Below are positions 8,723-19,263 of a stretch of 64,000 bases of DNA, one piece after another. Source of the DNA: Rhizobiaceae bacterium (GTDB lineage Bacteria; Pseudomonadota; Alphaproteobacteria; Rhizobiales; Rhizobiaceae); contig JANQKQ010000067.1 in the NCBI GenBank assembly GCA_028281105.1, positions 3,200-67,199 of the forward strand, written 5' to 3'. Made by a program: the position numbers and the translations under genes. Positions within the stretch are counted from its first letter, which is position 1. Every line of letters starts with the position of its first letter. The notes under the pieces are model-generated. The model did not search any database. It saw nothing but the letters and a program-made list of their open reading frames with translations, and was not told the DNA's origin.

Positions 8723-9346
8723 ATGGCCGAAAAGCCAAAAGACCATGATCACAGCCATCTGTCGGACACGGAGCTGCGCGTGCGCGCGCTGGAGTCGCTG
8801 CTGACGGAAAAGGGCTATATCGATCCGGCCGCTCTCGACGAAATCGTCGAGACCTATGAGACCAGGATCGGGCCGCGAAACGGCGCCCAGGTGGTGGCGG
8901 CCGCCTGGACCGACCCCGATTATCTGACCCGCCTGCGCGAAGACGCCACCGCCGCGATCGCCGAACTGGGTTTCACCGGCCGCCAGGGCGAGCACATGCG
9001 CATCGTCGAGAATGCGCCGGACACCCACAATATGGTCGTGTGCACCTTATGCTCATGCTATCCGTGGTCCGTGCTCGGCCTGCCGCCGGTATGGTACAAG
9101 TCGCCGGCCTATCGCTCGCGCGCGGTCAGCGAACCGCGGGCGGTGCTCGCGGAGTTCGGTGTCGAACTGCCCGCGGACAAGCGCATCCGGGTTTGGGATT
9201 CGACTGCCGAGGTGCGCTATCTGGTCATACCGGAACGGCCGGCCGGCACCGATGGGTGGGATCGCGACGCGCTCGCCCAATTGGTTACCCGCGATTCGAT
9301 GATCGGGACGGGACTGGCGCTCGATCCCGGTGAGTTAGGCGGCTAG
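8723..9346 (+). CDS. nthA: Nitrile hydratase alpha subunit, cobalt type
   Basis: Metal-site motif [10 protein letters not shown] (Thr at the position that is Ser in Fe-type enzymes). 207 aa. Confidence 0.9.
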
Positions 9347-9348
9347 CA

Positions 9349-9999
9349 GTGAACGGCCCCCACGACATGGGCGGCATGCAGTGCTACGGGCCGGTGGTGC
9401 CCGAGGTGGACGAGCCGGTCTTCCACGCCGAATGGGAAAAGCGCGCCCTGGCGCTGACCGTGGCCATGGGTTTCTGCGGTGTGTGGAACATCGACAAGTC
9501 CCGCTTCGCCCGCGAGCGCATCGCGCCGGCGCAATATCTGTCTTCGAGCTACTATCAGATCTGGATCGCCGGCCTTGAACGGCTGTTGGCCGAAAACGGG
9601 CTGGCGACGAACGAGGAACTGGCAAGCGGCAGGGCGAGCGAACCGGCCAGCACCGTCAAACGTGTGTTGACCGGCGGCGACGTCGCCGCCGCGTTGGCAG
9701 CCGGCAGCCCGGTCGAACGCCAGGCGACGACCAAACCGAAATTCGCCGTCGGCGATACCGTCACCACCGGTAACTCCAGCCCGCAAGGGCACACACGCCT
9801 GCCGCGCTATGCGCGCGGGCGGACCGGTGTGATCGAGGCGGTGCATGGGGTGCATGTGTTTCCCGACGCCAACGCCGCCGGCGAGGGCGAACAGCCGCAC
9901 TGGCTCTATGCGGTGCGCTTCGAAGGCGTCGAGCTGTTCGGGCCCGGCAACGACCAGCAGGTCGTTGTCGACTGCTGGGAGCCGTATCTTGAAAGCTGA
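9349..9999 (+). CDS. nthB: Nitrile hydratase beta subunit
   Basis: GTG start 3 nt after the nthA stop. MNGPHDMGGMQCYGPV...FHAEWEKRALAL is the canonical beta-subunit N-terminus. Confidence 0.9.
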   Translation: MNGPHDMGGMQCYGPVVPEVDEPVFHAEWEKRALALTVAMGFCGVWNIDKSRFARERIAPAQYLSSSYYQIWIAGLERLLAENGLATNEELASGRASEPASTVKRVLTGGDVAAALAAGSPVERQATTKPKFAVGDTVTTGNSSPQGHTRLPRYARGRTGVIEAVHGVHVFPDANAAGEGEQPHWLYAVRFEGVELFGPGNDQQVVVDCWEPYLES

Positions 10000-10342
10000 A
10001 GACGACCTGCTCGCCGCCGTCGACACGATCCCGCGCGATGAGGATGGGCCGGCGTTTAGCGAACCCTGGGAGGCACAGGCCTTCGCCATGGCTGTCTGCC
10101 TGAATGCACGTGGTCTTTTTACCTGGAATGAATGGGCCAAGACCCTAGGCGCCGTGATCAACGCCGATGACGGCCGCACACCGGCGCGGGACTACTATCT
10201 GCTTTGGCTGACGGCGCTGGAACGCATCGTGTGCGAGGAAAGCGAACTTGCCGCTCAAGACCTTGCCCGACGAAAGCATGCCTGGGCCGAAGCAGCGGCG
10301 CGAACGCCGCATGGAAAGGCGGTCGAACTGCCTGCACGATAG
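9989..10342 (+). CDS. Nitrile hydratase accessory (activator/metallochaperone) protein
   Basis: C-terminal part of ORF 9845..10342. FSEPWEAQAFAMAVCLNARGLFTWNEWAKTLG resembles the beta-subunit-like accessory proteins. Probable TTG start at 9989, overlapping the nthB stop; exact start uncertain. Confidence 0.7.
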   Translation: MKAEDDLLAAVDTIPRDEDGPAFSEPWEAQAFAMAVCLNARGLFTWNEWAKTLGAVINADDGRTPARDYYLLWLTALERIVCEESELAAQDLARRKHAWAEAAARTPHGKAVELPAR

Positions 10343-10477
10343 TTCCACCGCCGGGTTTTAGCTCGTACTCGCTTCAAATCCCGCCGAGGCCTTCCTATAT
10401 TCGGGCCACGTTCGGCGGCCGCTGAGGGGACGTTCAAGCGCGCCCGCCATCATCGCAAAGCAGGAGGACGACACCCT

Positions 10478-11563
10478 ATGGCGACGTTGCAGGAGTTTGA
10501 TTCGCAGATCGAGCAGACCCGGCAGACGGTCGAGGACATGCGCGACAAGCTGGAGAAAAGCGGCGTCATTCTGGACAAGCTTGCCGAGACCGAGACCATC
10601 GGCGAAATCGACTTCGACATCGAAAACGCCCGCATCAGGGATGTGCTCGCCCAGCAGAAGACGATGGAGGCCAACATCGCCGATCTGATCATCGGCCTTG
10701 AAGACGCCACCAACGTGTTCGGCGCCGAGTTCGAGAGCATGAAGAGCTATTCGGGCTGGGAGAAGTTCATCGGCGTCTTCTCCAAGGAACGCATGCAGCG
10801 CATGCGTTCGGATCGGGTGCGCAACATGTCGCTCGCCGGCAATCTGCAGGAGTTGCTCGCCAAGTCGGACACCATCGTCGGTATTCTCAAGGCCCAGAAG
10901 GATGCGCTGGATTCGCGTTACGCCGCCTCCGAAGCCAGCCTGCGCAAGGTGATCGACCGGCGCACGGCGACGATGAGCGAGTTGGAGGAGGTGCAAAAGC
11001 GCATCGAGGAGCTGAACCCGATGCTGCTCGATCTGGAGAACCAAATCTCGGCAGCGACCAAGCAGAAGAAGCGCGCCGAACTGGAGGGGCAGCGCTCGGA
11101 ACTGGCCACCGAGTACAACCAGAGTCAGGCGCGCGAGCAGGAGCTGCTGGCCGAGAGCCAGACCCTAGAGCGCTACACCTCGATGTTCCAGACCTTCGTC
11201 GATTCGCTCAACAACCAGCTCGCCGCCCAGCAGACACTGATCAACAAGCTGACCATCGACACCGAGCAGCGGGTCGTTCTGTACAAGGCACTGGAAGATT
11301 CGCTGAAAACCGCCGCCCAACAGGACGTGGCCCACAAGATCAACACGCTGGGCAACCGGGTCGACACCGCGGCCGAGGAGACCATGGCGGGCATCGGCGC
11401 CGCCGCCCAGTCGCATATCGGCGATCTTCTGGAAATGCATGAAAAAAACATGGCCTCGACCAAGGACATCCAGCGGCGCAAGAAGCTCGCCGACGAGGCG
11501 TTCGCCCGCCGGTTCGAAGAGGTGATGGCCAAGCACAACTCGGCCAACTATGTCACCGGCTAG
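10478..11563 (+). CDS. Long coiled-coil protein of unknown function (361 aa), first gene of the AAA module
   Basis: ATG 10478 lies 9 nt after AGGAGGA. The sequence is almost entirely heptad-like, charged and helical (…ELEEVQKRIEELNPMLLDLENQISAATKQKKRAELEGQRSELATEYNQSQAREQELLAESQTLERY…). No TM segment or signal peptide. Confidence 0.8.
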   Translation: MATLQEFDSQIEQTRQTVEDMRDKLEKSGVILDKLAETETIGEIDFDIENARIRDVLAQQKTMEANIADLIIGLEDATNVFGAEFESMKSYSGWEKFIGVFSKERMQRMRSDRVRNMSLAGNLQELLAKSDTIVGILKAQKDALDSRYAASEASLRKVIDRRTATMSELEEVQKRIEELNPMLLDLENQISAATKQKKRAELEGQRSELATEYNQSQAREQELLAESQTLERYTSMFQTFVDSLNNQLAAQQTLINKLTIDTEQRVVLYKALEDSLKTAAQQDVAHKINTLGNRVDTAAEETMAGIGAAAQSHIGDLLEMHEKNMASTKDIQRRKKLADEAFARRFEEVMAKHNSANYVTG

Positions 11564-11600
11564 GACGGGCCGATGCGCGCGATAGACGGAGTGCGGGCGG

Positions 11601-12746
11601 TTGCACGCTGACGTGACGGCGGCAGGGCGCTACTTTCGCGCCATCGATCGCGCATTCGACGGGCTCGATACCTTTCTGCGCGAGGACGATTCCCCGCTCT
11701 ACAAGCACGACGTGATCGGCGCGGTGGTCTCCAACTATCTGAAGCGCCTGCGGGGTTCCTTCGAAAGCTGGCACGACCGCATCTCGTTTGCCGAACGGTT
11801 CCGCATCTCCCAGGCCGAAAGCGGCTTCCCCGCCTTTCAGCACGTGCTCGACCTCGACAACGACCGTAAGACGGCAAAGTCGCGGCTCGCCTCGATGCCG
11901 GATGAGGAGACCATCCGCGAAGAGATGGTCGATTTCATTCTGCGCAAGAAGGCGTTTCCCGGCGCGCTGCAGAAGACGATGGCGGAGCGGCGCTATCTGG
12001 AGACGGTGCTGGACGGCAGGCATTTCGGCCCGTTCGTGCTGCCGCGCACCATCCGGGTTTCGGTCAATCCGAAGACGAAACGGCCTTACTACATCGTTCA
12101 CTGGGGCTATTACGACGGTTCGGCCAACCTGCCCCTGGTCTATATGGCGTCGGTGGAGGATTCATCGGAAGACCTGGTCAAGACCCTGGTCACCAAGAAG
12201 GGCAAGCTCAACCGGAAGGTCGACATCCCGCTGCCGGTGGAAGGCCTGCTCAATCCGGCGCTGGCGCATCAGTTCGACGATTTCTGCGAGAAAAACTCAG
12301 CCTACTCGCTGACGCTCGCGACCATCGCCACCAACATGGACAAAGACTTCGACCGGTTGCATCCCAAGCAACTGCGCCGCTTCGTGCTGGGGCCGTTCTA
12401 CCACGCCGGGATCACCGAGCACGGGCACACGGTCGACAAGATCCTGGCCAAGATCAAGCGAAGCGACGATGCCTGGCTGCTCACCTGGACGCTGCAGGAA
12501 ATCTACTCGACGAGCGAGACCCCGGCCAAATGGGGCTTGTGGGGCGGCCAGCCCGCGCGCGATGAATATCACATCAACACCGACGATCTCGACTGCGCGC
12601 GCCAGGGTGTGAGCGCCTTTCAGCGCCATGCGCTGGTGCCGCACGAGGCCTACCAGGCGATCTACGCCGCCGGCCAGGCCGACGAGGTGTTTGACGGCTA
12701 CCACAAGCACATCATCTCCGGCGGTGAAGTGTTGCGGGATATGTGA
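11601..12746 (+). CDS. Orphan protein (381 aa), second gene of the AAA module
   Basis: ORF 11601..12746 with a TTG start (GTG 13 nt downstream is the alternative), 37 nt after the previous stop. No recognisable motif by eye. Confidence 0.65.
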   Translation: MHADVTAAGRYFRAIDRAFDGLDTFLREDDSPLYKHDVIGAVVSNYLKRLRGSFESWHDRISFAERFRISQAESGFPAFQHVLDLDNDRKTAKSRLASMPDEETIREEMVDFILRKKAFPGALQKTMAERRYLETVLDGRHFGPFVLPRTIRVSVNPKTKRPYYIVHWGYYDGSANLPLVYMASVEDSSEDLVKTLVTKKGKLNRKVDIPLPVEGLLNPALAHQFDDFCEKNSAYSLTLATIATNMDKDFDRLHPKQLRRFVLGPFYHAGITEHGHTVDKILAKIKRSDDAWLLTWTLQEIYSTSETPAKWGLWGGQPARDEYHINTDDLDCARQGVSAFQRHALVPHEAYQAIYAAGQADEVFDGYHKHIISGGEVLRDM

Positions 12747-12768
12747 GCGGCAAAATGCGGAAGACGCC

Positions 12769-14679
12769 ATGGACATCGGACTGACCACCCTACCCGAAGG
12801 CGACATCGCCAAGCATCTGGCCACTGCGCAAAGCCTGGTGACCCGTCTGGTGGTGCTGGAAGCGTCTAAGGGCAAGTCGCAGACCGAGCTGGCCGGCACA
12901 AGACGGCGGTTCGTCTCGACCGTGTCGACCGCCGGCGCGCGGTCCTCGCGCGAGGTGGAACTGGCCAAGACCCTGGCGGCGGTGAACCCCGACGATGCGA
13001 TGCTGTCGCCGGTCCAGCACGCGGTGCTGTTCAAGACGCGCCGGGCGCTGGCGGTGGCTCTGTCCGTGGGCGATCTGTTCGCGCGGCAAACCGGGCTCGA
13101 TGCGCTGAAAGACCGCAACGCCGCCTCGACCCTGGAAGGGGATACGGCCGACCGGTTCCGCGCTCTGCTGGAGGCGAGCGCCTATGTGGCCGCGTTCACG
13201 GCGGCCGCCTATCTCAAGCAGATGATAGAGGCGGGCGGCGAGGCGCCGGGCGATGTTTCACCGCCCAGCTGGAACTTCGACACCCCGCACGATGCGCTCA
13301 AGACCCTGGTCGCCGGGCTGGAGGCGGCGGTCGAAGGCGCGCCGGACGATCCCGCCCTGCAGGCCCGGGTGAGCGCCTTCGTCGGCGAGGCGATCGAGGA
13401 TCTGTTGTCGCGCAAGTCCCGGTTCTCGGCGCTGGGTGGGTTCGAAGAGACCCATCTGCGGCTCGATGCCGACGGGTTCGAGCTCAACGGCTTCGACGTG
13501 GCGCCGGGCGCGAAATCCAAACCGTTGGTGATGACGTTCAAGCAGCCGAACGAGATCATCGGCAACCACATCGCCAAATACCAGGCGATGAAGCTGGCCA
13601 AGATGCTGATGGCCTACGACTTCGACCGGCAGATGAACCCATTCGTGGAGCTTGGCGGCTTCCTGTTCACCTTCATCGGCGACGGCGCGCCCGGAACGGG
13701 AAAGACCATCCTGATCCAGATGATCGCGGGGATGATCCACGACTACTGCCAGGTGGCCGGCTACGGCTTTACCTACGAGAATTTCGGCGTCGACCAGATT
13801 TCGTCGTATCAGGGCAAGTCGGGGCAGAACTGCAAGCAGTTCATCTCAAACGTGCTCAACCCGCGCACGATCGGTTTCGGCACCGTCGACGACATCGACC
13901 AGGTCGCCGCCAAGCGCTCCGACGACCGCGCCTCGGCCGGCCAGCAGGAGGTGACCGCGGTGCTGATGGAGAGCTTCGCCGGCGCCACCACAGTGGTGCG
14001 CGGCAACTGCTCATTCGGCATGTTTTCGAACTATCCCGAAAACGTCGACGACGCCCTGCGCCAGCGCGCCGGCGCGCGCTGGCTCGTTGACGGGCCACAG
14101 ACCCGCGATGACTATATCGACATCTTCGTGCTGCTGGCCGGCGACAACCACGCCATCAAGCTCGGCAAGCATGACCTGTATGAAGCGCAGGCGATCAAGC
14201 GGGCGGTGGCGGCCGCGTATGAAGGCCACGACGAACCGGACGAGGAAGGGCTGGCCGCAGTCTACGATCGGGTCGTCGCCGAGCACGGCAAGTTCAAGAC
14301 CATGGCCGACATCGGCACCTATCTGCACCAGATCAAACTGGCCGAGCCGCGCTTCACCGGCCGGGCCATCAAGAACATCACCGACGCGATCAAGATGCGC
14401 GCAATGGACGTCGAGTTACCCGACGAATGGTTCGAGACGCCGGAAGCGTTCATGCACAAGTCCTATGACGACAAGAAAGCGATGATCGAGGAACTGCGCG
14501 GGCCGTTCACCATCGAAATGGTGATCCAGGAGATCAACCGCTACGCCGATTCCGAGTTCCGCTACACCGACCGCGCCGACGAGGCGGCGGTCGACGAAAT
14601 TATCCACCGGGAACGGCAGCGGGAGAAGGCGGTGGAGAGGATCGGCAGGATGAAGGAAGATGGCAGTTGGAGCGGGTAG
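12769..14679 (+). CDS. Classical-clade AAA ATPase with long helical N-terminal domain (636 aa)
   Basis: ORF 12628..14679, start set to ATG 12769 (MDIGLTTLPEG). Walker A GDGAPGTGKT (13678-13707). Walker B GTVDD (DD at 13888-13893). SRH-like NVDDALRQRAGARWLVDGP. The core aligns motif by motif with Vps4/FtsH-type AAA domains. Confidence 0.85.
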   Translation: MDIGLTTLPEGDIAKHLATAQSLVTRLVVLEASKGKSQTELAGTRRRFVSTVSTAGARSSREVELAKTLAAVNPDDAMLSPVQHAVLFKTRRALAVALSVGDLFARQTGLDALKDRNAASTLEGDTADRFRALLEASAYVAAFTAAAYLKQMIEAGGEAPGDVSPPSWNFDTPHDALKTLVAGLEAAVEGAPDDPALQARVSAFVGEAIEDLLSRKSRFSALGGFEETHLRLDADGFELNGFDVAPGAKSKPLVMTFKQPNEIIGNHIAKYQAMKLAKMLMAYDFDRQMNPFVELGGFLFTFIGDGAPGTGKTILIQMIAGMIHDYCQVAGYGFTYENFGVDQISSYQGKSGQNCKQFISNVLNPRTIGFGTVDDIDQVAAKRSDDRASAGQQEVTAVLMESFAGATTVVRGNCSFGMFSNYPENVDDALRQRAGARWLVDGPQTRDDYIDIFVLLAGDNHAIKLGKHDLYEAQAIKRAVAAAYEGHDEPDEEGLAAVYDRVVAEHGKFKTMADIGTYLHQIKLAEPRFTGRAIKNITDAIKMRAMDVELPDEWFETPEAFMHKSYDDKKAMIEELRGPFTIEMVIQEINRYADSEFRYTDRADEAAVDEIIHRERQREKAVERIGRMKEDGSWSG

Positions 14680-14746
14680 TGGGCGACGCCGTCGGGCGGG
14701 TTTTCCGGCAGTCGGCCCAGCCTTTGCCGTTCCGTCGACCTGAGAC

Positions 14747-15457
14747 TCAGGCCGGAATCTTCCTGAAATGCGCGTTCGGGCTTCGAGCGAATGAGCTCAG
14801 GATGAACCAGCGCGTCACGGTTTTCTCCAGCACGGGATTGCCGATCAGCTGAATCCCGTCCGCGTCGATCTCGGCCTGCAGCGGCGTATGGCCCATATAG
14901 GCCGAGACCATGGCGCGCAGATCGCAGATCACGAACAGGTCCACATCGAAGCCGGGATCGATGTAGCACACGTCCACCTGGGCGCCGGGCTTGGAGATGG
15001 TCCAGAAGTTCTGCGGTGCCTTGTCCGGCTCGTTGAAGATGAATTGCATGACGATGCGTCTGGGCGGCAGTTCCTCGGGAAGGATGCAGCGCCGCAGGTT
15101 CCACATCAGGCAACTGGCATCCAGACGGCAAAGCGCGTCTTCCGACGTGGTGTTCTTATAGGCCCAGTCGCCCAGGGCCTGAATGATCGGCTCCAGTTCG
15201 ACGGCCATCTGCGTTCGCAAATAGTCTATCGAACCGGAGTTCGGATCCTCGACCCGCTCGATCAACCCGTGGGCTTCCAGTTCCTTGAGCCGCTTGGTGA
15301 GCAACGTCGGCGAGATGCCGGGAACACCGCGACGAATATCGTTGAACCGGCTCGATCCCCACCACATCTCGGTGAGGATCAACAGGGTCCAGCGGGGTTC
15401 GAGTATCTCGCAAGCCTTGGTGACCGGGCAGAACAGCGCGAACTTGTTGATCGGCAT
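14747..15457 (-). CDS. HxlR-family transcriptional regulator with C-terminal extension
   Basis: CPVTKACEILEPRWTLLILTEMWWGSSRFNDIRRGVPGISPTLLTKRLKELEAHGLIER is the HxlR winged-helix signature. GGAGG precedes ATG 15457. Confidence 0.85.
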   Translation of the reverse strand: MPINKFALFCPVTKACEILEPRWTLLILTEMWWGSSRFNDIRRGVPGISPTLLTKRLKELEAHGLIERVEDPNSGSIDYLRTQMAVELEPIIQALGDWAYKNTTSEDALCRLDASCLMWNLRRCILPEELPPRRIVMQFIFNEPDKAPQNFWTISKPGAQVDVCYIDPGFDVDLFVICDLRAMVSAYMGHTPLQAEIDADGIQLIGNPVLEKTVTRWFILSSFARSPNAHFRKIPA

Positions 15458-15500
15458 GGCAAACCTCCAGCCGCCATGATGGAGAATGCGGGCGAATTAT

Positions 15501-15521
15501 CCAGTACAGATTTTGTACCGG
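15501..15521. promoter_or_regulatory. 21-bp imperfect palindrome in the HxlR divergent intergenic region (candidate operator)
   Basis: CCAGTACAgatttTGTACCGG, 8 of 10 arm positions complementary. Lies between the divergent genes at 15457 and 15618. Confidence 0.3.
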
Positions 15522-15617
15522 GCGCAATCCATCTCCTACACTGGCTGGCGCCCGGCGTCTGGTGGGACGCTTGCGGGGGTTCCCTGAGAACCGAATTCCA
15601 GCAAGCGGAGAAAACTG

Positions 15618-15932
15618 ATGATGATCGCACGTTGGAGCGTTGAAGCCCGGTTTGGACACAAATCCCAGGCCATCGACCTGCTACAGCAATGGTACCAAGA
15701 GATCGGCAGCCAGACGGATATCGATCTGGCCACCAAACGCATCATCACCGGATCGGTGGGCGCCGGCGAGGCGGTGATCGAGACCGAGTTCGAAATCGGC
15801 GGGCTTGGCGAGCTCCAGGATTTCTTCAACAAGATCGGCTCGATCAAGATGCACGAGGACTGGGGGCCGAAGATGGGCGAAGTCATCGTCTCTGGCTCGG
15901 CGGTCTGGCACGTCTACCGGATAATCGCGTAG
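15618..15932 (+). CDS. Small hypothetical protein (104 aa) divergent from the HxlR gene
   Basis: ORF with GGAGAAA upstream of ATG 15618. No family recognised. Confidence 0.55.
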   Translation: MMIARWSVEARFGHKSQAIDLLQQWYQEIGSQTDIDLATKRIITGSVGAGEAVIETEFEIGGLGELQDFFNKIGSIKMHEDWGPKMGEVIVSGSAVWHVYRIIA

Positions 15933-16058
15933 AGCGCCCAGGGGCTCGGCTGGCGCCGTGGCCGGCCGGCACTTACATCCAATCGGCGCCCGGTGCAGTG
16001 TCGGGTGATTATCAGCGTACATGCTTGCGTCGTTGAACTTCGTGCCCGCGATACCTAT

Positions 16059-16083
16059 ATTAAGCTAGCTTAGCTAGCTTAAT
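16059..16083. promoter_or_regulatory. 25-bp perfect palindrome, probable antitoxin/TA-complex operator
   Basis: ATTAAGCTAGCT-T-AGCTAGCTTAAT, 12-bp arms around one central base, ending 13 nt before the antitoxin ATG. Confidence 0.6.
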
Positions 16084-16096
16084 TGGATAGCTTTCT

Positions 16097-16345
16097 ATGA
16101 CCGTTCATACCTTCGGCACCTTCGACGCCAAGAACAAGCTCAGCCATCTGCTCGATCTGGTCGAGGCGGGAGATGAGGTCATCATCACCCGCAACGGCAA
16201 GCCGGTGGCGCGGCTCGTGGCGGATGTCGCGCGGGACGTCGAGCGGGCGCGCAAGGCGGTCGAATGGATCAAGGCCAACCGCTCGGCAAACAGCCTCGGC
16301 GACGACACGATCAAGGGCTTGATTGAGGCGGGGCGGCGATATTGA
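16097..16345 (+). CDS. Type II antitoxin, Phd/YefM family
   Basis: MTVHTFGTFDAKNKLSHLLDLVEAGDEVIITRNGKPVARLV is a typical Phd/YefM N-terminus. 4-nt TTGA overlap with the downstream PIN gene. Confidence 0.85.
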   Translation: MTVHTFGTFDAKNKLSHLLDLVEAGDEVIITRNGKPVARLVADVARDVERARKAVEWIKANRSANSLGDDTIKGLIEAGRRY

Positions 16346-16755
16346 GCATTGTGGTCGACGCTTCCATCGTCCTCGCCTTTCATTTCGAGGACGAAAGCAG
16401 TGTGACGGCCGACCGCGTGTTCGAAATGCTGCTGAGCCACGAAGCTCTGGTTCCAGTCCATTGGCACGCCGAGGTGGCCAACGGATTCGCGATCGCGGTA
16501 CGGCGCAATCGGATGACGCGTGAATTTCGCACCGGCGCTTTAAATCGCCTGGGGGGCCTTCGGTTCGTCGTTGACGAAACAAGTCGCAGTGCGCTGTGGT
16601 CTGACACGATCGAGATTTGCGACCGCCATGCCCTGACAGCCTATGACGCCGCCTATCTTGAGCTCGCCTTGCGCAAGCACCTGCCACTCGCCACGCTGGA
16701 CAAGTCGTTGGCGAGCGCGGCCGTCGCGGAAGGCGCTGATGTTTTCAACGGATAG
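16342..16755 (+). CDS. vapC: PIN-domain toxin VapC
   Basis: IVVDASIVLAFHFEDE ... TAYDAAYLELALRKHLPLATLDKSL carries the conserved PIN acidic residues (D near the N-terminus, E, D, D). TTG start. Confidence 0.85.
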   Translation: MSIVVDASIVLAFHFEDESSVTADRVFEMLLSHEALVPVHWHAEVANGFAIAVRRNRMTREFRTGALNRLGGLRFVVDETSRSALWSDTIEICDRHALTAYDAAYLELALRKHLPLATLDKSLASAAVAEGADVFNG

Positions 16756-16758
16756 CCC

Positions 16759-18030
16759 ATGCATCGCCTGATCGACAACGAGCTCATCTTCGGCACGCTG
16801 ATGAGCGTCTCCGAGCCGCATCTGGTGGCCCGCTACAACCAGGCGCTGGCCGGTTTCGGCCTGTCGGCCACCAAGCGTGACGAATTCACGATCGACATGA
16901 CCGGGTTCTCGCCGCAGATCGCCGAGGAGTTGGGTGATCCGCAATATCTCGATCCCGCGGGCATCAACCGGCGTTTTATCATACTCACGCCGGACCAGGC
17001 GGAGCTGCCGGTGGTGCATACGCAGTTCTCCAATACCGAGGATTTAATGGCGGCGTTCTTCGAGCACAACCGGCGCGCGCTCCACGCGCTCACCATCAAG
17101 GACGTGGTCTATGGCGAGATCGAGGATTCGATCTTCCAGGCGCACGATATCGAAGACCTGCTGGCGATCGAGCAAGTCGAGTTCAAGGTATCGACCGTGA
17201 CCGATCTGCTGGGGCGCACCGGCGAACTCAAGACCTTGATCGAGCGGCTCACCAAAGAGCCGGATGCGTGGCGCGAAGACGCTCTGCTCGAACGTATGGT
17301 CGAATGTGCCAAGGTCACCGGAGACATCCGCACCAACGAGCTGGTCCCCGATCAGGTGCTGTTCCGCCACAATACGTTCTGGACCGGGCATTTTGGCGGC
17401 GTCTACGTGTTCATCGACGAGACGGCCACCACGGTGATCGCCGATCCCGCCGCCCCCGGCTTCCGCCGTTCGCGTCCCTGGCAGGTCGCCTATATCGACA
17501 TTGGCGACAAAGGGGCGGTCTATCGGTTCCTGGCGCAGACCGGCCGCATCGATCCGCCGCGCGGTTCGTGGATTGAGCGCACCGGCCTGCTCGAACTGCG
17601 CGCGAAGCGGGCCGCGACCTGGCTTGCCATGCGCGACCGCCCGCCAGAAGAAAAGATCGACGAACGATGGCTCAAGTCATGGATCGGCGCCAATTCGCGA
17701 GCGATCGAAGACGATGGCACCATTCCGCTGATCAACTGGGTCAACCGACAGGTGACGAACTGGTCCAGTATCGACATGAACGAAATTCATCCCGACCACC
17801 GGTTTGCGCTGTGCCGCGCCAACCCCGAGCACGCCGATCACTATCTGGTCAACCGGCTGATAAGCGAGTATCTGCCATTCGATCACATGACCCGCTATAT
17901 CTATCACAAGCAGGGCTTCTATCGTGACTACGAGAACTGGCCGGAAGTCTATCGCGACCATGTGGTAGGCGACATCGCCAGACACTATATGAGCGATCGG
18001 CGGGGCTATCGCCAGCAGCTCTATCACTAG
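16759..18030 (+). CDS. Orphan protein (423 aa), fourth gene of the AAA module
   Basis: ATG 16759 lies only 3 nt after the vapC stop. No recognisable motif. Native-looking composition. Confidence 0.7.
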   Translation: MHRLIDNELIFGTLMSVSEPHLVARYNQALAGFGLSATKRDEFTIDMTGFSPQIAEELGDPQYLDPAGINRRFIILTPDQAELPVVHTQFSNTEDLMAAFFEHNRRALHALTIKDVVYGEIEDSIFQAHDIEDLLAIEQVEFKVSTVTDLLGRTGELKTLIERLTKEPDAWREDALLERMVECAKVTGDIRTNELVPDQVLFRHNTFWTGHFGGVYVFIDETATTVIADPAAPGFRRSRPWQVAYIDIGDKGAVYRFLAQTGRIDPPRGSWIERTGLLELRAKRAATWLAMRDRPPEEKIDERWLKSWIGANSRAIEDDGTIPLINWVNRQVTNWSSIDMNEIHPDHRFALCRANPEHADHYLVNRLISEYLPFDHMTRYIYHKQGFYRDYENWPEVYRDHVVGDIARHYMSDRRGYRQQLYH

Positions 18031-18117
18031 AGCAATTTCGATTTTGACGGAATCGGCGAAATCGAAATGCGCGATAGCAGCCAATGATCTGCTGTTACTG
18101 GCCGTTTACACCCAACG

Positions 18118-19263
18118 GTGAAACGGCCTAATCGGCCAACAGGGGTATCGAATCGGACCATGCTTGATCCCGTCATCGCATTCTTCAAGAGCATTCTGGG
18201 CTGGCTCTGGCGCGGAATCGGCCGGCTGGTCGGCTGGGTGTTGTGGCCGTTCAGAACGTTTTCGAGCTGGCTGCGCGGGCGCGGCTGGTTCGTCAAGATT
18301 CCGGTTTTCGCCATTGTCGCCCTGCTGGTCGTCGGCTACGTCCATCTGTTGGCCATCACTCAGTTCTGGTCGACGGGCGATGCCGCCCAACTGGCTCAGC
18401 ACGACAACGCCAGCTCCGCCACTCCGGTCGGCGAGCGGTTGGAAAACGGCAGCTGCCAGCAATCGGCAATGATCACGGCGACGGCCGATCTGATCGAATT
18501 CAACGTCAATGAGGGTACCTGGGTCCCCTCGAACCCGCTGCACAAGGCCGGTTTCTTCTTCATCACCGACTGGAAAAACACGCCGTTCCTCGACAACCGG
18601 GCCGCCTTTCAGCTCGGCATCAACCAGACCGTGCGGCGCACGGCGGTAGAGCTCGTCGACCGGCTGGGCCGGGTGCGAGGCACCTCATCGATCAATCAGA
18701 ACCTGCAACATGCGCGCGAGGCGGCCAACTATCGCGAGGACGCCTGGGTCGTTACGTTCTCGTGGCCCTTCCTGCAGCCGTCAACGCCGAACAAACTGCG
18801 CGAGGCGAGGCGCGAATTGCTGGAGTTCAATACCGAACTGGCCAACTGCCAGGCCGATTTCGATGCGCGGGCCGACAATCTCCTGCAGTTTCTCGACCGC
18901 GTAACCGCCGATATCGGTTCGACATCGGAGATTCTGCAGCGGCGCATGGAGCAGGCGAATTTCACCGGCATCGACCGCCGCGCGGATGATCGATTCTGGT
19001 TCACTTACGGGCAGCTATACGGCTATTTCGCGATTCTCACCGCGGCGCGCAGCGATTTCGCCAATGTGTTCGAGCAGCGCAATCTGGACAATCTGTGGAC
19101 CCGGGTCGACGACCAATTGCGCGACGCGCTCGCCGTCCGGCCATTCATCGTCGTCAACGGCACCGCCTCCAGTATCATCAAGTCGCATCTGGAATCGATC
19201 GGCTTCGACCTGCTTCGCGTGCGCTCCAATCTGGTGGAAATGCGCGACGTGCTCGATCGCTGA
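18118..19263 (+). CDS. Single-pass membrane protein (possibly DUF2333-like), fifth gene of the AAA module
   Basis: Trp/Arg-rich amphipathic N-terminus, then one TM helix (FVKIPVFAIVALLVVGYVHLLAI), then a roughly 300-aa soluble domain. GTG 18118 or ATG 18160 as start. The DUF2333 assignment is from memory of the family and is unverified. Confidence 0.7.
   Translation: MKRPNRPTGVSNRTMLDPVIAFFKSILGWLWRGIGRLVGWVLWPFRTFSSWLRGRGWFVKIPVFAIVALLVVGYVHLLAITQFWSTGDAAQLAQHDNASSATPVGERLENGSCQQSAMITATADLIEFNVNEGTWVPSNPLHKAGFFFITDWKNTPFLDNRAAFQLGINQTVRRTAVELVDRLGRVRGTSSINQNLQHAREAANYREDAWVVTFSWPFLQPSTPNKLREARRELLEFNTELANCQADFDARADNLLQFLDRVTADIGSTSEILQRRMEQANFTGIDRRADDRFWFTYGQLYGYFAILTAARSDFANVFEQRNLDNLWTRVDDQLRDALAVRPFIVVNGTASSIIKSHLESIGFDLLRVRSNLVEMRDVLDR

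Follow-up and report, generated by a model that had tools for sequence, protein, structure and literature searches.

The window analysed here, a 64,000-nucleotide stretch of contig JANQKQ010000067.1 from a Rhizobiaceae bacterium, carries five same-strand genes (g1 to g5) arranged around an AAA ATPase. Do these genes form one module, and what might such a module do? A sequence-only reading of the locus had described a coiled-coil protein (g1), two orphans (g2 and g4), the ATPase (g3) and a single-pass membrane protein (g5) as an uncharacterised module recalling ESCRT-III/PspA-Vps4 or TelA systems. All five open reading frames (ORFs) are present on the forward strand, and the comparisons below bear out that they form a real, conserved and functionally undescribed module around a classical-type AAA ATPase. 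No characterised pathway takes in the five genes in profile and fold searches, and the accessible literature holds no paper on DUF6638, the family of g4, and only passing mentions of DUF2333, that of g5. As a whole, the module matches no described system, although the superfamily of its ATPase is known and g3 adds a new branch to it.

The gene order was examined by a scan anchored on DUF6638, with one genome per species across 185,579 species, about 310 of which matched the DUF6638 patterns. We retrieved the best 80 species loci among these, and 69 of them had enough upstream DNA to judge. All 80 come from Hyphomicrobiales, including Mesorhizobium, Phyllobacterium, Nitratireductor, Aminobacter, Aquamicrobium, Salaquimonas, Ahrensia, and Zhengella. 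The five genes occur in the same order on one strand in 67 of the 69 informative loci, and in the remaining two (L009 and L039) g4-g5 lie more than 10 kb from g1-g3. For L009, an AAA orthologue (P0081) is recorded on a contig of identical length (264,291 bp), so that a larger insertion or rearrangement, and not gene loss, seems to have parted the two halves. Across the species loci, the median identity to the window is 78% for g1, 63% for g2, 70% for the AAA protein, 56% for DUF6638, and 48% for DUF2333. Compact versions (e.g., L002 and L093) have gene ends that abut or overlap. The cluster is also found in Sinorhizobium meliloti, other Sinorhizobium spp., and Shinella, in records that are filed as plasmids though they are really chromosomes. 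The adjacency of the five genes is far beyond chance, and with the families syntenic elsewhere, an accidental neighbourhood in the window is excluded. Taken together, the colinear loci and the abutting or overlapping gene ends show that the five genes are one ancestral operon.

Beyond these species, a four-gene core (g1-g2-AAA-DUF6638) is homologous over its full length in seven distant loci with GC contents of 25–63% (L083, L084, L086, L087, L089, L091, and L092; Table 1). In five of them (L083, L084, L086, L087, and L089), identity to the window is 26–54% for g1, 22–49% for g2, 38–63% for the AAA protein including its N- and C-terminal extensions, and 24–44% for DUF6638. Homologues of g2 at 21.8–28% identity occupy the same position of distant loci, and full-length g3 homologues are found there at 38–51% identity. 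In the five-gene locus L093, g2 was recognised by a local match of 24% identity over 140 amino acids (aa; E = 1e-6), with 20% identity in a full-length alignment. Two of the distant loci, L087 and L092, which are unrelated, have a different set of partners: a dynamin-like GTPase with a hydrophobic segment (43% identity between the two loci), DUF1523 with two transmembrane (TM) helices, and a small 2-TM protein. These results show that g1-g2-AAA-DUF6638 is the invariant core and that the membrane partner varies, being either DUF2333 or a dynamin-like GTPase with DUF1523. The partner set lies at 14045–16232 of L087 and 13647–16027 of L092, between the AAA gene and DUF6638 in one and after DUF6638 in the other; L092 also encodes a Band_7 protein, SecA, and RuvA. 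Among the other carriers are non-mobilizable 0.88–0.94 Mb plasmids of Vibrio parahaemolyticus, V. vulnificus, V. cholerae, V. fluvialis, and relatives, on which the core stands beside the plasmid's own mfd (L089 is V. parahaemolyticus pVP-19-VB00998). The same plasmids have an RNase H family gene, an A24 peptidase gene, and two conserved genes for soluble proteins of ~175 and ~295 aa upstream of the core, the latter two probably reflecting synteny of the plasmid backbone. An entire plasmid of this kind may be represented by a metagenomic scaffold of 915,727 bp.

What happens to g1 when its neighbours are gone bears most directly on their relationship. In R. leguminosarum (L090, 7887–10241) and an Agrobacterium-like genome (L085, 10001–12403), the ancestral locus between tdk and fhs/trpE retains only g1 and DUF2333. 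DUF6638 thus disappeared together with g2 and the AAA gene, not with DUF2333. Between S. meliloti and these two-gene genomes, the flanking choX, tdk, fhs, and extensin genes are 57–82% identical and DUF2333 is 62–63% identical, yet g1 is only 24–32% identical. Likewise, DUF2333 is 71% identical between L090 and L085, and g1 only 25%. The relation is reversed where all five genes are kept: the window and S. meliloti share 78% identity in g1 and 44% in DUF2333. Judged from these sequences, g1 appears to diverge about as fast as neutral spacer once g2, AAA, and DUF6638 (the ATPase trio) are lost, and most of the constraint on it is gone. Separately from this locus, R. leguminosarum carries the four-gene core on a 1.3 Mb replicon, and the g1 encoded there is 54% identical to that of the window.

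A segment of g1 at residues ~275–312, with the motif SLKTAxQQxxAHxINxIG...MAxIGxA, follows the same pattern. It is kept in every g1 that stands beside g2-AAA-DUF6638, down to 23% overall identity, and is deleted or degenerate in both trio-less loci (L090 and L085) as well as in five further divergent members. Because both the constraint on g1 and this segment go with the trio, g1 is probably the physical partner, and most simply the client, of the ATPase complex, and the segment is a candidate contact or recognition element for the trio. Since g1 is the sole component common to every variant, we regard it as the hub of the module.

The hub itself is a highly conserved protein. Among the five-gene genomes, g1 is the most conserved of the five proteins, with 74–85% identity across 65 species and alignment columns that average 86% identity. 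Among 1.84 billion representatives searched, 287 relatives of g1 were recovered at 50% clustering, most of them colinear over the full 340–370 aa and down to 24% identity. None of these relatives has a Pfam family, and g1 itself has no meaningful match in Pfam, NCBIfam, PHROGs, or PADLOC. In the PDB, g1 profiles matched generic coiled coils only, and when the diverse g1 alignment served as a profile, all the relatives it retrieved were close ones (69–82% identity). Domain searches of g1 found no NTPase or DNA-binding domain, and the protein has no TM segment, cysteine, or signal peptide. By its sequence, g1 is a member of a new, Pfam-less family of ~355-aa all-helical proteins rather than a generic coiled coil, and the earlier description of it as long and helical holds. 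An AlphaFold2 (AF2) model built on a diverse 49-sequence alignment has a mean predicted local distance difference test score (pLDDT) of 81 and a predicted template modelling score (pTM) of 0.72, and consists of eight helices with a long hairpin (120–192/196–295). The pLDDT falls below 50 at residues 295–313, which in a model is typical of an element that orders only upon binding. The best PDB folds are nearly all of the ClyA family (YaxA, AhlC, AhlB, MakE, MakA, PaxB, SmhB, NheA, XaxA/B, Hbl-B, and ClyA); the matches are weak, with E values from 5e-3 to 7e-2 (best, YaxA 5.2e-3; none at E <= 1e-3) and TM-scores of 0.14–0.56. On this model, the likeness of g1 to ClyA bundles would be weak and at the fold level only.

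The presumed motor, g3, matches the AAA family PF00004 (E = 1.3e-10, 42.2 bits vs. a cut-off of 21.2). It has more than 4000 homologues, and the 120 best listed are 72–100% identical across genera. Only residues ~290–466 (core ~303–460, ~130–170 of them aligned) match solved structures, with VAT first (4e-9) and Rpt2, Afg2, Cdc48, Yme1, and katanin next. Across 27 g3 sequences, down to 38% identity, the Walker A motif GAPGTGKT (GxPGTGKT), the pore loop S-Y-Q-G, and the arginines R433/R437 of the second region of homology (SRH) are invariant. The Walker B motif reads DDID, not DEID, in 27/27 sequences (D374-D375; residues 374–377, window 13888–13899), and this Asp-for-Glu exchange suggests a slow or cofactor-activated ATPase. 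PF00004, Walker A, the pore-loop aromatic residue, and the SRH arginines confirm the assignment of the core to the classical AAA clade, with its catalytic Glu replaced by Asp. The narrower label of a Vps4/FtsH-clade ATPase proved too specific: only the core matches, Vps4 is not among the 60 best PDB matches of g3, and g3 has no TM segment and, in Pfam, an AAA core only, with no MIT domain, Vps4_C, or Peptidase_M41. No g3 homologue was found in 50,697 phage records.

The two putative cofactors differ in what can be said of them. The earlier view of g2 as an orphan stands, with no family in Pfam, NCBIfam, PHROGs, or PADLOC and no PDB sequence relative, even with a profile of 22 sequences spanning 20–73% identity. 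The same label does not fit g4, which belongs to Pfam DUF6638 (PF20343, E = 1.5e-73, 248.6 bits vs. a cut-off of 27), with a match spanning profile positions 1–409 of 439. Its AF2 model, from a 42-sequence alignment, is well defined (pLDDT 86.9, pTM 0.82) and of mixed alpha/beta structure. It has no fold match in 350,542 PDB chains (best E = 1.8) or among the viral models of BFVD (best E = 0.39), and a profile search found no PDB sequence relative of g4.

The last gene, g5, had been described as a bitopic membrane protein that may be DUF2333-like, and both points were right. It matches PF10095 (E = 6.5e-19, 68.5 bits vs. a cut-off of 22), RefSeq names its orthologues DUF2333, and the one TM helix gives a peak 19-residue Kyte-Doolittle mean of 2.52. 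The flanks of the helix carry six positive and one negative charges before it and one positive and four negative after it. Two cysteines (C99 and C230), ~130 residues apart, follow the helix in all seven orthologues inspected, and an alignment of 40 sequences shows both to be invariant; they probably form a disulfide. The flank charges and the cysteine pair therefore indicate an N-in/C-out topology, with a predicted periplasmic DUF2333 domain and a conserved cytoplasmic N-terminus of ~45 residues. Sequence-profile searches found no PDB relative of g5. DUF2333 also occurs alone in Pseudomonas.

The one long gap within the operon is explained by insertion. In the window, the 2.1 kb between g3 and g4 (14680–16758) hold three genes, an HxlR regulator, a Phd/YefM antitoxin, and a PIN toxin. 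The latter two are adjacent and their domain matches fit, as in a type II toxin–antitoxin pair. Compact loci do without them, and we therefore regard HxlR and Phd/PIN as unrelated cargo. Elsewhere, the g3–g4 junction measures 2–20 bp in ~27 loci and 550–1900 bp in ~28 loci, and it is a recurrent insertion hotspot within the operon. Among 107 gap ORFs searched against Pfam were 12 DUF559/MTES_1575 endonuclease-like, 11 PIN, 3 Phd, 3 HicB, 3 PLD-like, 1 MazF, and 1 Fic. The junction carries MazEF and HicAB in Salaquimonas pukyongi, and a DUF559-like endonuclease and ISRm16 in S. meliloti Ak57. In 11 other species, homologues with 38–60% identity to the Phd/PIN pair of the window occupy this junction in matching orientation, immediately 5' of DUF6638. 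Either the pair is an old co-inherited resident, or it has been acquired repeatedly with a site preference. HxlR was seen at this junction in the window only, and in none of the other loci surveyed. The ~640 bp between HxlR and Phd (15458–16096) contain no convincing ORF (GC content at third codon positions, GC3, 0.45–0.56) and no Rfam match; a promoter-like site lies upstream of the Phd antitoxin, at 16033–16061. Smaller inserts occur at the g2–g3, g1–g2, and g4–g5 junctions in a few loci.

The gene calls of the window are supported by composition and by homologues. The GC3 of the five genes is 0.80–0.87 (0.87 for g1), compared with ~0.45–0.56 in overlapping spurious ORFs, in a window of 64% GC. 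The g3 start given earlier, 12769 rather than 12628 of the longer ORF, is upheld because homologues begin with MDxGLTT. The start of g5 is most likely ATG 18160 and not GTG 18118, because all orthologues share the conserved N-terminus MLDP. The gaps of 37 nt (g1–g2) and 22 nt (g2–g3) were given correctly, whereas the g4–g5 gap of 87 nt, which counts from GTG 18118, becomes 129 nt with the ATG start. A consensus scan of the region found three promoter-like sites vs. 1.9 expected by chance, which is weak on its own; one of them precedes g1 (Table 1). Neither the promoter nor the terminator scans rose above chance, and Rfam and repeat scans gave no match in the region. Paralogy among the module proteins was considered and rejected (hhalign of g2 vs. 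g4 and g1 vs. g5, probability 0.4%). Directly upstream of the module, at 8723–10342, are genes for nitrile hydratase alpha and beta subunits and an accessory-like ORF; these neighbours also occur in Salaquimonas pukyongi (L001) and not in Sinorhizobium or the L002 genome. Downstream in the window are a cation-diffusion facilitator and a TrpE(G)-like ORF.

Table 1. Features of the module in the window, cargo at the g3–g4 junction, and distant loci with the core.
Feature	Position or source	Strand	Description
g1	10478..11563	+	361-aa all-helical hub, new family without Pfam model
g1 segment, residues ~275–312	11300..11413	+	candidate contact/recognition element for the ATPase trio
g2	11601..12746	+	381-aa orphan, core member of the module
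g3	12769..14679	+	636-aa AAA ATPase: family-specific N-terminal ~300 aa, AAA core, C-terminal ~180 aa
g3 AAA core	13675..14148	+	residues ~303–460
g4	16759..18030	+	423-aa DUF6638 protein, core member of the module
g5	18160..19263	+	367-aa DUF2333 bitopic membrane protein; frame also open from GTG 18118
g5 transmembrane helix	18277..18372	+	residues 40–71 counted from ATG 18160
HxlR-family regulator (cargo)	14747..15457	-	PF01638, E = 1.4e-20
Phd/YefM antitoxin (cargo)	16097..16345	+	PhdYeFM_antitox, 4.6e-11
PIN toxin (cargo)	16342..16755	+	PIN, 1.8e-8; 4-nt overlap with antitoxin
Promoter-like site	10373..10401	+	TTCAAA-17-TATATT, 77 nt 5' of g1; consensus scan
L083, L084, L091, L089	Vibrio-type 0.88–0.94 Mb megaplasmids and relatives		g1-g2-AAA-DUF6638, then mfd
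L086	R. leguminosarum-type 1.3 Mb replicon		g1-g2-AAA-DUF6638
L087, L092	GC 43% and 25.5%		core plus dynamin-like GTPase, DUF1523, small 2-TM protein; two different arrangements
L093	GC 61%, g1 34% identical		five genes including DUF2333, tightly packed
Loci cited for g3–g4 inserts	window, L001, L006, L007, L010, L022–L025, L034–L038, L041, L042, L050, L060, L063, L069–L080, L088		

In S. meliloti, the module probably corresponds to SMc02729 to about SMc02734, a mapping from gene order only. A microarray annotation lists SMc02729 as a "hypothetical transmembrane protein" and SMc02730 as "conserved hypothetical" (supplement of PMC8343143). These annotations fit g5 and g4, so SMc02733 would fall in the g1-g3 part. 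We note as a lead, and do not use as evidence, that the ChvI-bound fragment F9 lies inside SMc02733 (PMC3687685).

What might the module do? We tentatively propose, at a confidence somewhat short of even, that it is an ATP-driven remodeller of a membrane-linked helical protein, g1. The best working model, as a functional analogy, is an AAA protein that recycles such a client; it is based on the sharp fall in g1 conservation where the trio is lost and on the association with dynamin-like GTPases. In this model, g1 would exist as a soluble bundle and, in alternation, in an assembled form on the cytoplasmic side of the inner membrane, much as the ClyA-family proteins that its model weakly matches alternate between soluble and membrane-assembled states. 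The conserved ~45 cytoplasmic N-terminal residues of DUF2333 may recruit, tether, or trigger g1, and the periplasm-facing bulk of DUF2333 could sense the state of the envelope; in other lineages, g1 would work alongside the dynamin-like GTPase and DUF1523. A hexameric AAA ring might grip g1 through the pore loop S-Y-Q-G, with g1 segment 275–312 as the contact, and, with g2 and DUF6638 as cofactors, would extract g1 from the assembly and so reset it. The physiological role would be membrane maintenance or remodelling. A more specific version, possible but doubtful, is an unrecognised membrane-remodelling or repair machine that is ESCRT-III/Vps4-like in function and built of unrelated parts, where a cytoplasmic ClyA-fold g1 would assemble on the inner membrane under the control of a periplasm-facing DUF2333 sensor or a dynamin-like GTPase and be recycled by AAA with g2 and DUF6638.

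Several observations weigh against such a remodeller. The fold matches of g1 are weak, and long helical bundles attract matches of this kind; g1 has no hydrophobic segment (maximum 19-residue hydropathy 0.91; none >= 1.6). The Walker B Asp may mean little ATP hydrolysis, and with no fold match for DUF6638, its role as a cofactor is a guess. The probable g5 and g4 probes barely change (M ~-0.1 and +0.18) in a phosphatidylcholine-less, ChvI-activated S. meliloti mutant (PMC8343143). Finally, the cores of the Vibrio-type plasmids and the R. leguminosarum replicon have no adjacent membrane protein, and their neighbours are the DNA-related genes mfd, RNase H, rpoD-like, and uvrD. This last setting, on plasmids of 0.88–1.3 Mb, is what favours a role in the maintenance or organisation of large replicons, with g1 as a coiled-coil scaffold that acts with the ATPase on the nucleoid or in segregation. 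Some g1 members are indeed auto-annotated as "chromosome segregation ATPase". Such names stem from coiled-coil bias, though, and g1 has no NTPase or DNA-binding domain; the megaplasmid neighbours may just be shared backbone synteny, and the recurring partners elsewhere are membrane proteins. We consider a replicon function improbable.

The resemblance of g1 to pore-forming toxins has also to be weighed in two other directions. One is anti-phage defence or abortive infection, in which the AAA complex would restrain a ClyA-like, membrane-damaging g1 and free it upon infection. Besides the fold matches, this would suit a distribution that is patchy at the large scale (~310 of 185,579 species with DUF6638 patterns, plus megaplasmids), the partial loss of the module in Rhizobium and Agrobacterium, and an inner junction that gathers toxin–antitoxin, DUF559 nuclease, PLD, and Fic genes, as is typical of defence islands. 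The dynamin-like neighbours would fit too: bacterial dynamin-like proteins act in membrane protection and DynA is implicated in phage defence, according to PMC12998192. Yet PADLOC gave only weak generic matches (TRIP13 5.8e-4 on the AAA core; LmuB/JetC coiled-coil noise on g1) and none for g2, g4, or g5. The locus is fixed amid housekeeping genes (tdk/cho... fhs/trpE) and vertically inherited across genera, the very strong purifying selection on g1 (86% mean column identity) is unlike that of fast-evolving defence genes, g1 lacks a hydrophobic head, and phage records contain no AAA homologue. A defence role is unlikely on this evidence. The other direction is export, with g1 as a secreted ClyA-type toxin (its model has weak fold matches to YaxA, AhlC, MakE, PaxB, NheA, and ClyA), AAA as its unfoldase or chaperone, and DUF2333 as the membrane conduit. 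ATPase-assisted export has a precedent in EccA of type VII secretion. Nonetheless, g1 has neither a signal peptide nor a hydrophobic tongue, a single-TM protein is an unlikely channel, in many versions no membrane protein adjoins the core, and most of the hosts live freely in soil or the sea; we give little credence to export. A similar cast of a helical protein with a long hairpin, a classical-type AAA, and a membrane anchor had suggested a very divergent but true homologue of ESCRT-III/PspA with Vps4, or of TelA. This homology found no support: neither Snf7 (PF03357) nor PspA_IM30 (PF04012) matched 35 close g1 members at E <= 10 or 10 distant ones at E <= 0.1, TelA (PF05816) matched neither g1 nor 45 family members, PDB profile searches gave generic coiled coils, and a comparison of the g1 model with PDB folds has no ESCRT-III, PspA, or Vipp1 structure in its first 50 matches. 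With an AAA protein that has neither MIT nor Vps4_C and Vps4 outside its 60 best PDB matches, true homology is very improbable. Equally hard to credit is that g1-g3 and g4-g5 are two independent modules that are merely adjacent. Long inserts often part g3 from g4, g4-g5 lie more than 10 kb from g1-g3 in two species, and DUF2333 stands alone in Pseudomonas; but the idea is contradicted for g4, since DUF6638 accompanies g1-g2-AAA in every distant locus with or without DUF2333, ~27 loci have only 2–20 bp at the junction, and on trio loss DUF6638 leaves with g2 and AAA, not with DUF2333.

If the remodelling model is true, the module would represent a new class of ATP-driven protein-remodelling machinery in bacterial cell-envelope biology and provide the first functions for DUF6638, DUF2333, and two Pfam-less families (g1 and g2). 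Its presence in S. meliloti, Mesorhizobium, Phyllobacterium, and Nitratireductor makes the hypothesis testable by standard genetics, and nature offers controls in the trio-less Rhizobium and Agrobacterium, the DUF2333-less megaplasmids, and the dynamin-linked versions. The ~0.9 Mb plasmids of V. parahaemolyticus, V. vulnificus, and V. cholerae link the module to the accessory genomes of pathogens. Two observations do not depend on the mechanism and are useful for comparative genomics in any case, namely the collapse of constraint on g1 once its partners are lost and the intra-operon insertion hotspot.

Compared with known systems, g3 is closest to Cdc48/VAT, Rpt/PAN, Afg2, and Yme1, with which it shares Walker A, the pore-loop aromatic residue and glycine, and the SRH arginines; it differs from them in its family-specific N-terminal ~300 and C-terminal ~180 residues and in the replacement of the catalytic Glu by Asp throughout. 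Unlike FtsH, it has no N-terminal TM helices and no M41 protease domain. The module resembles NSF/alpha-SNAP acting on SNAREs in that an AAA protein and non-enzymatic cofactors would work on an elongated helical bundle, and its DD-type Walker B recalls the D2 domain of NSF, which is non-hydrolysing. It has a single AAA domain and not two, with no detected homology to the NSF N-domain or SNAP, and its proposed substrate is a single ~360-aa protein and not a four-chain complex. The alpha-pore-forming toxins of the ClyA family (YaxAB/XaxAB, AhlABC, MakABE, and Nhe/Hbl) resemble the modelled g1 in size (~340–410 aa) and in an elongated bundle with a distinct end domain, and their matches span most of the length of the g1 model. 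These proteins switch between soluble and membrane-assembled states. In contrast to them, g1 lacks a secretion signal as well as any hydrophobic head or tongue, and the matches are weak (E >= 5e-3); we know of no ClyA-family operon with an AAA ATPase, DUF6638, or DUF2333.

Vps4 acting on ESCRT-III (or PspA/Vipp1) offers the likeness of a classical-type AAA, a helical likely client, and a membrane link, and the poorly ordered conserved segment of g1 could serve as a MIM-like recognition motif. The parts differ: g1 has no sequence or fold homology to ESCRT-III/PspA, the AAA protein lacks the MIT and Vps4_C domains of Vps4 and has DD rather than DE in Walker B, and the module has two extra obligatory proteins (g2 and DUF6638) with no counterpart. 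As for dynamin-like modules such as DynA, LeoABC, and IniAC, the window has no dynamin, and to our knowledge no described dynamin operon includes this AAA core. In two lineages, nevertheless, the core adjoins a dynamin-like GTPase and small membrane proteins, and these dynamin-linked versions suggest a shared theme of membrane remodelling.

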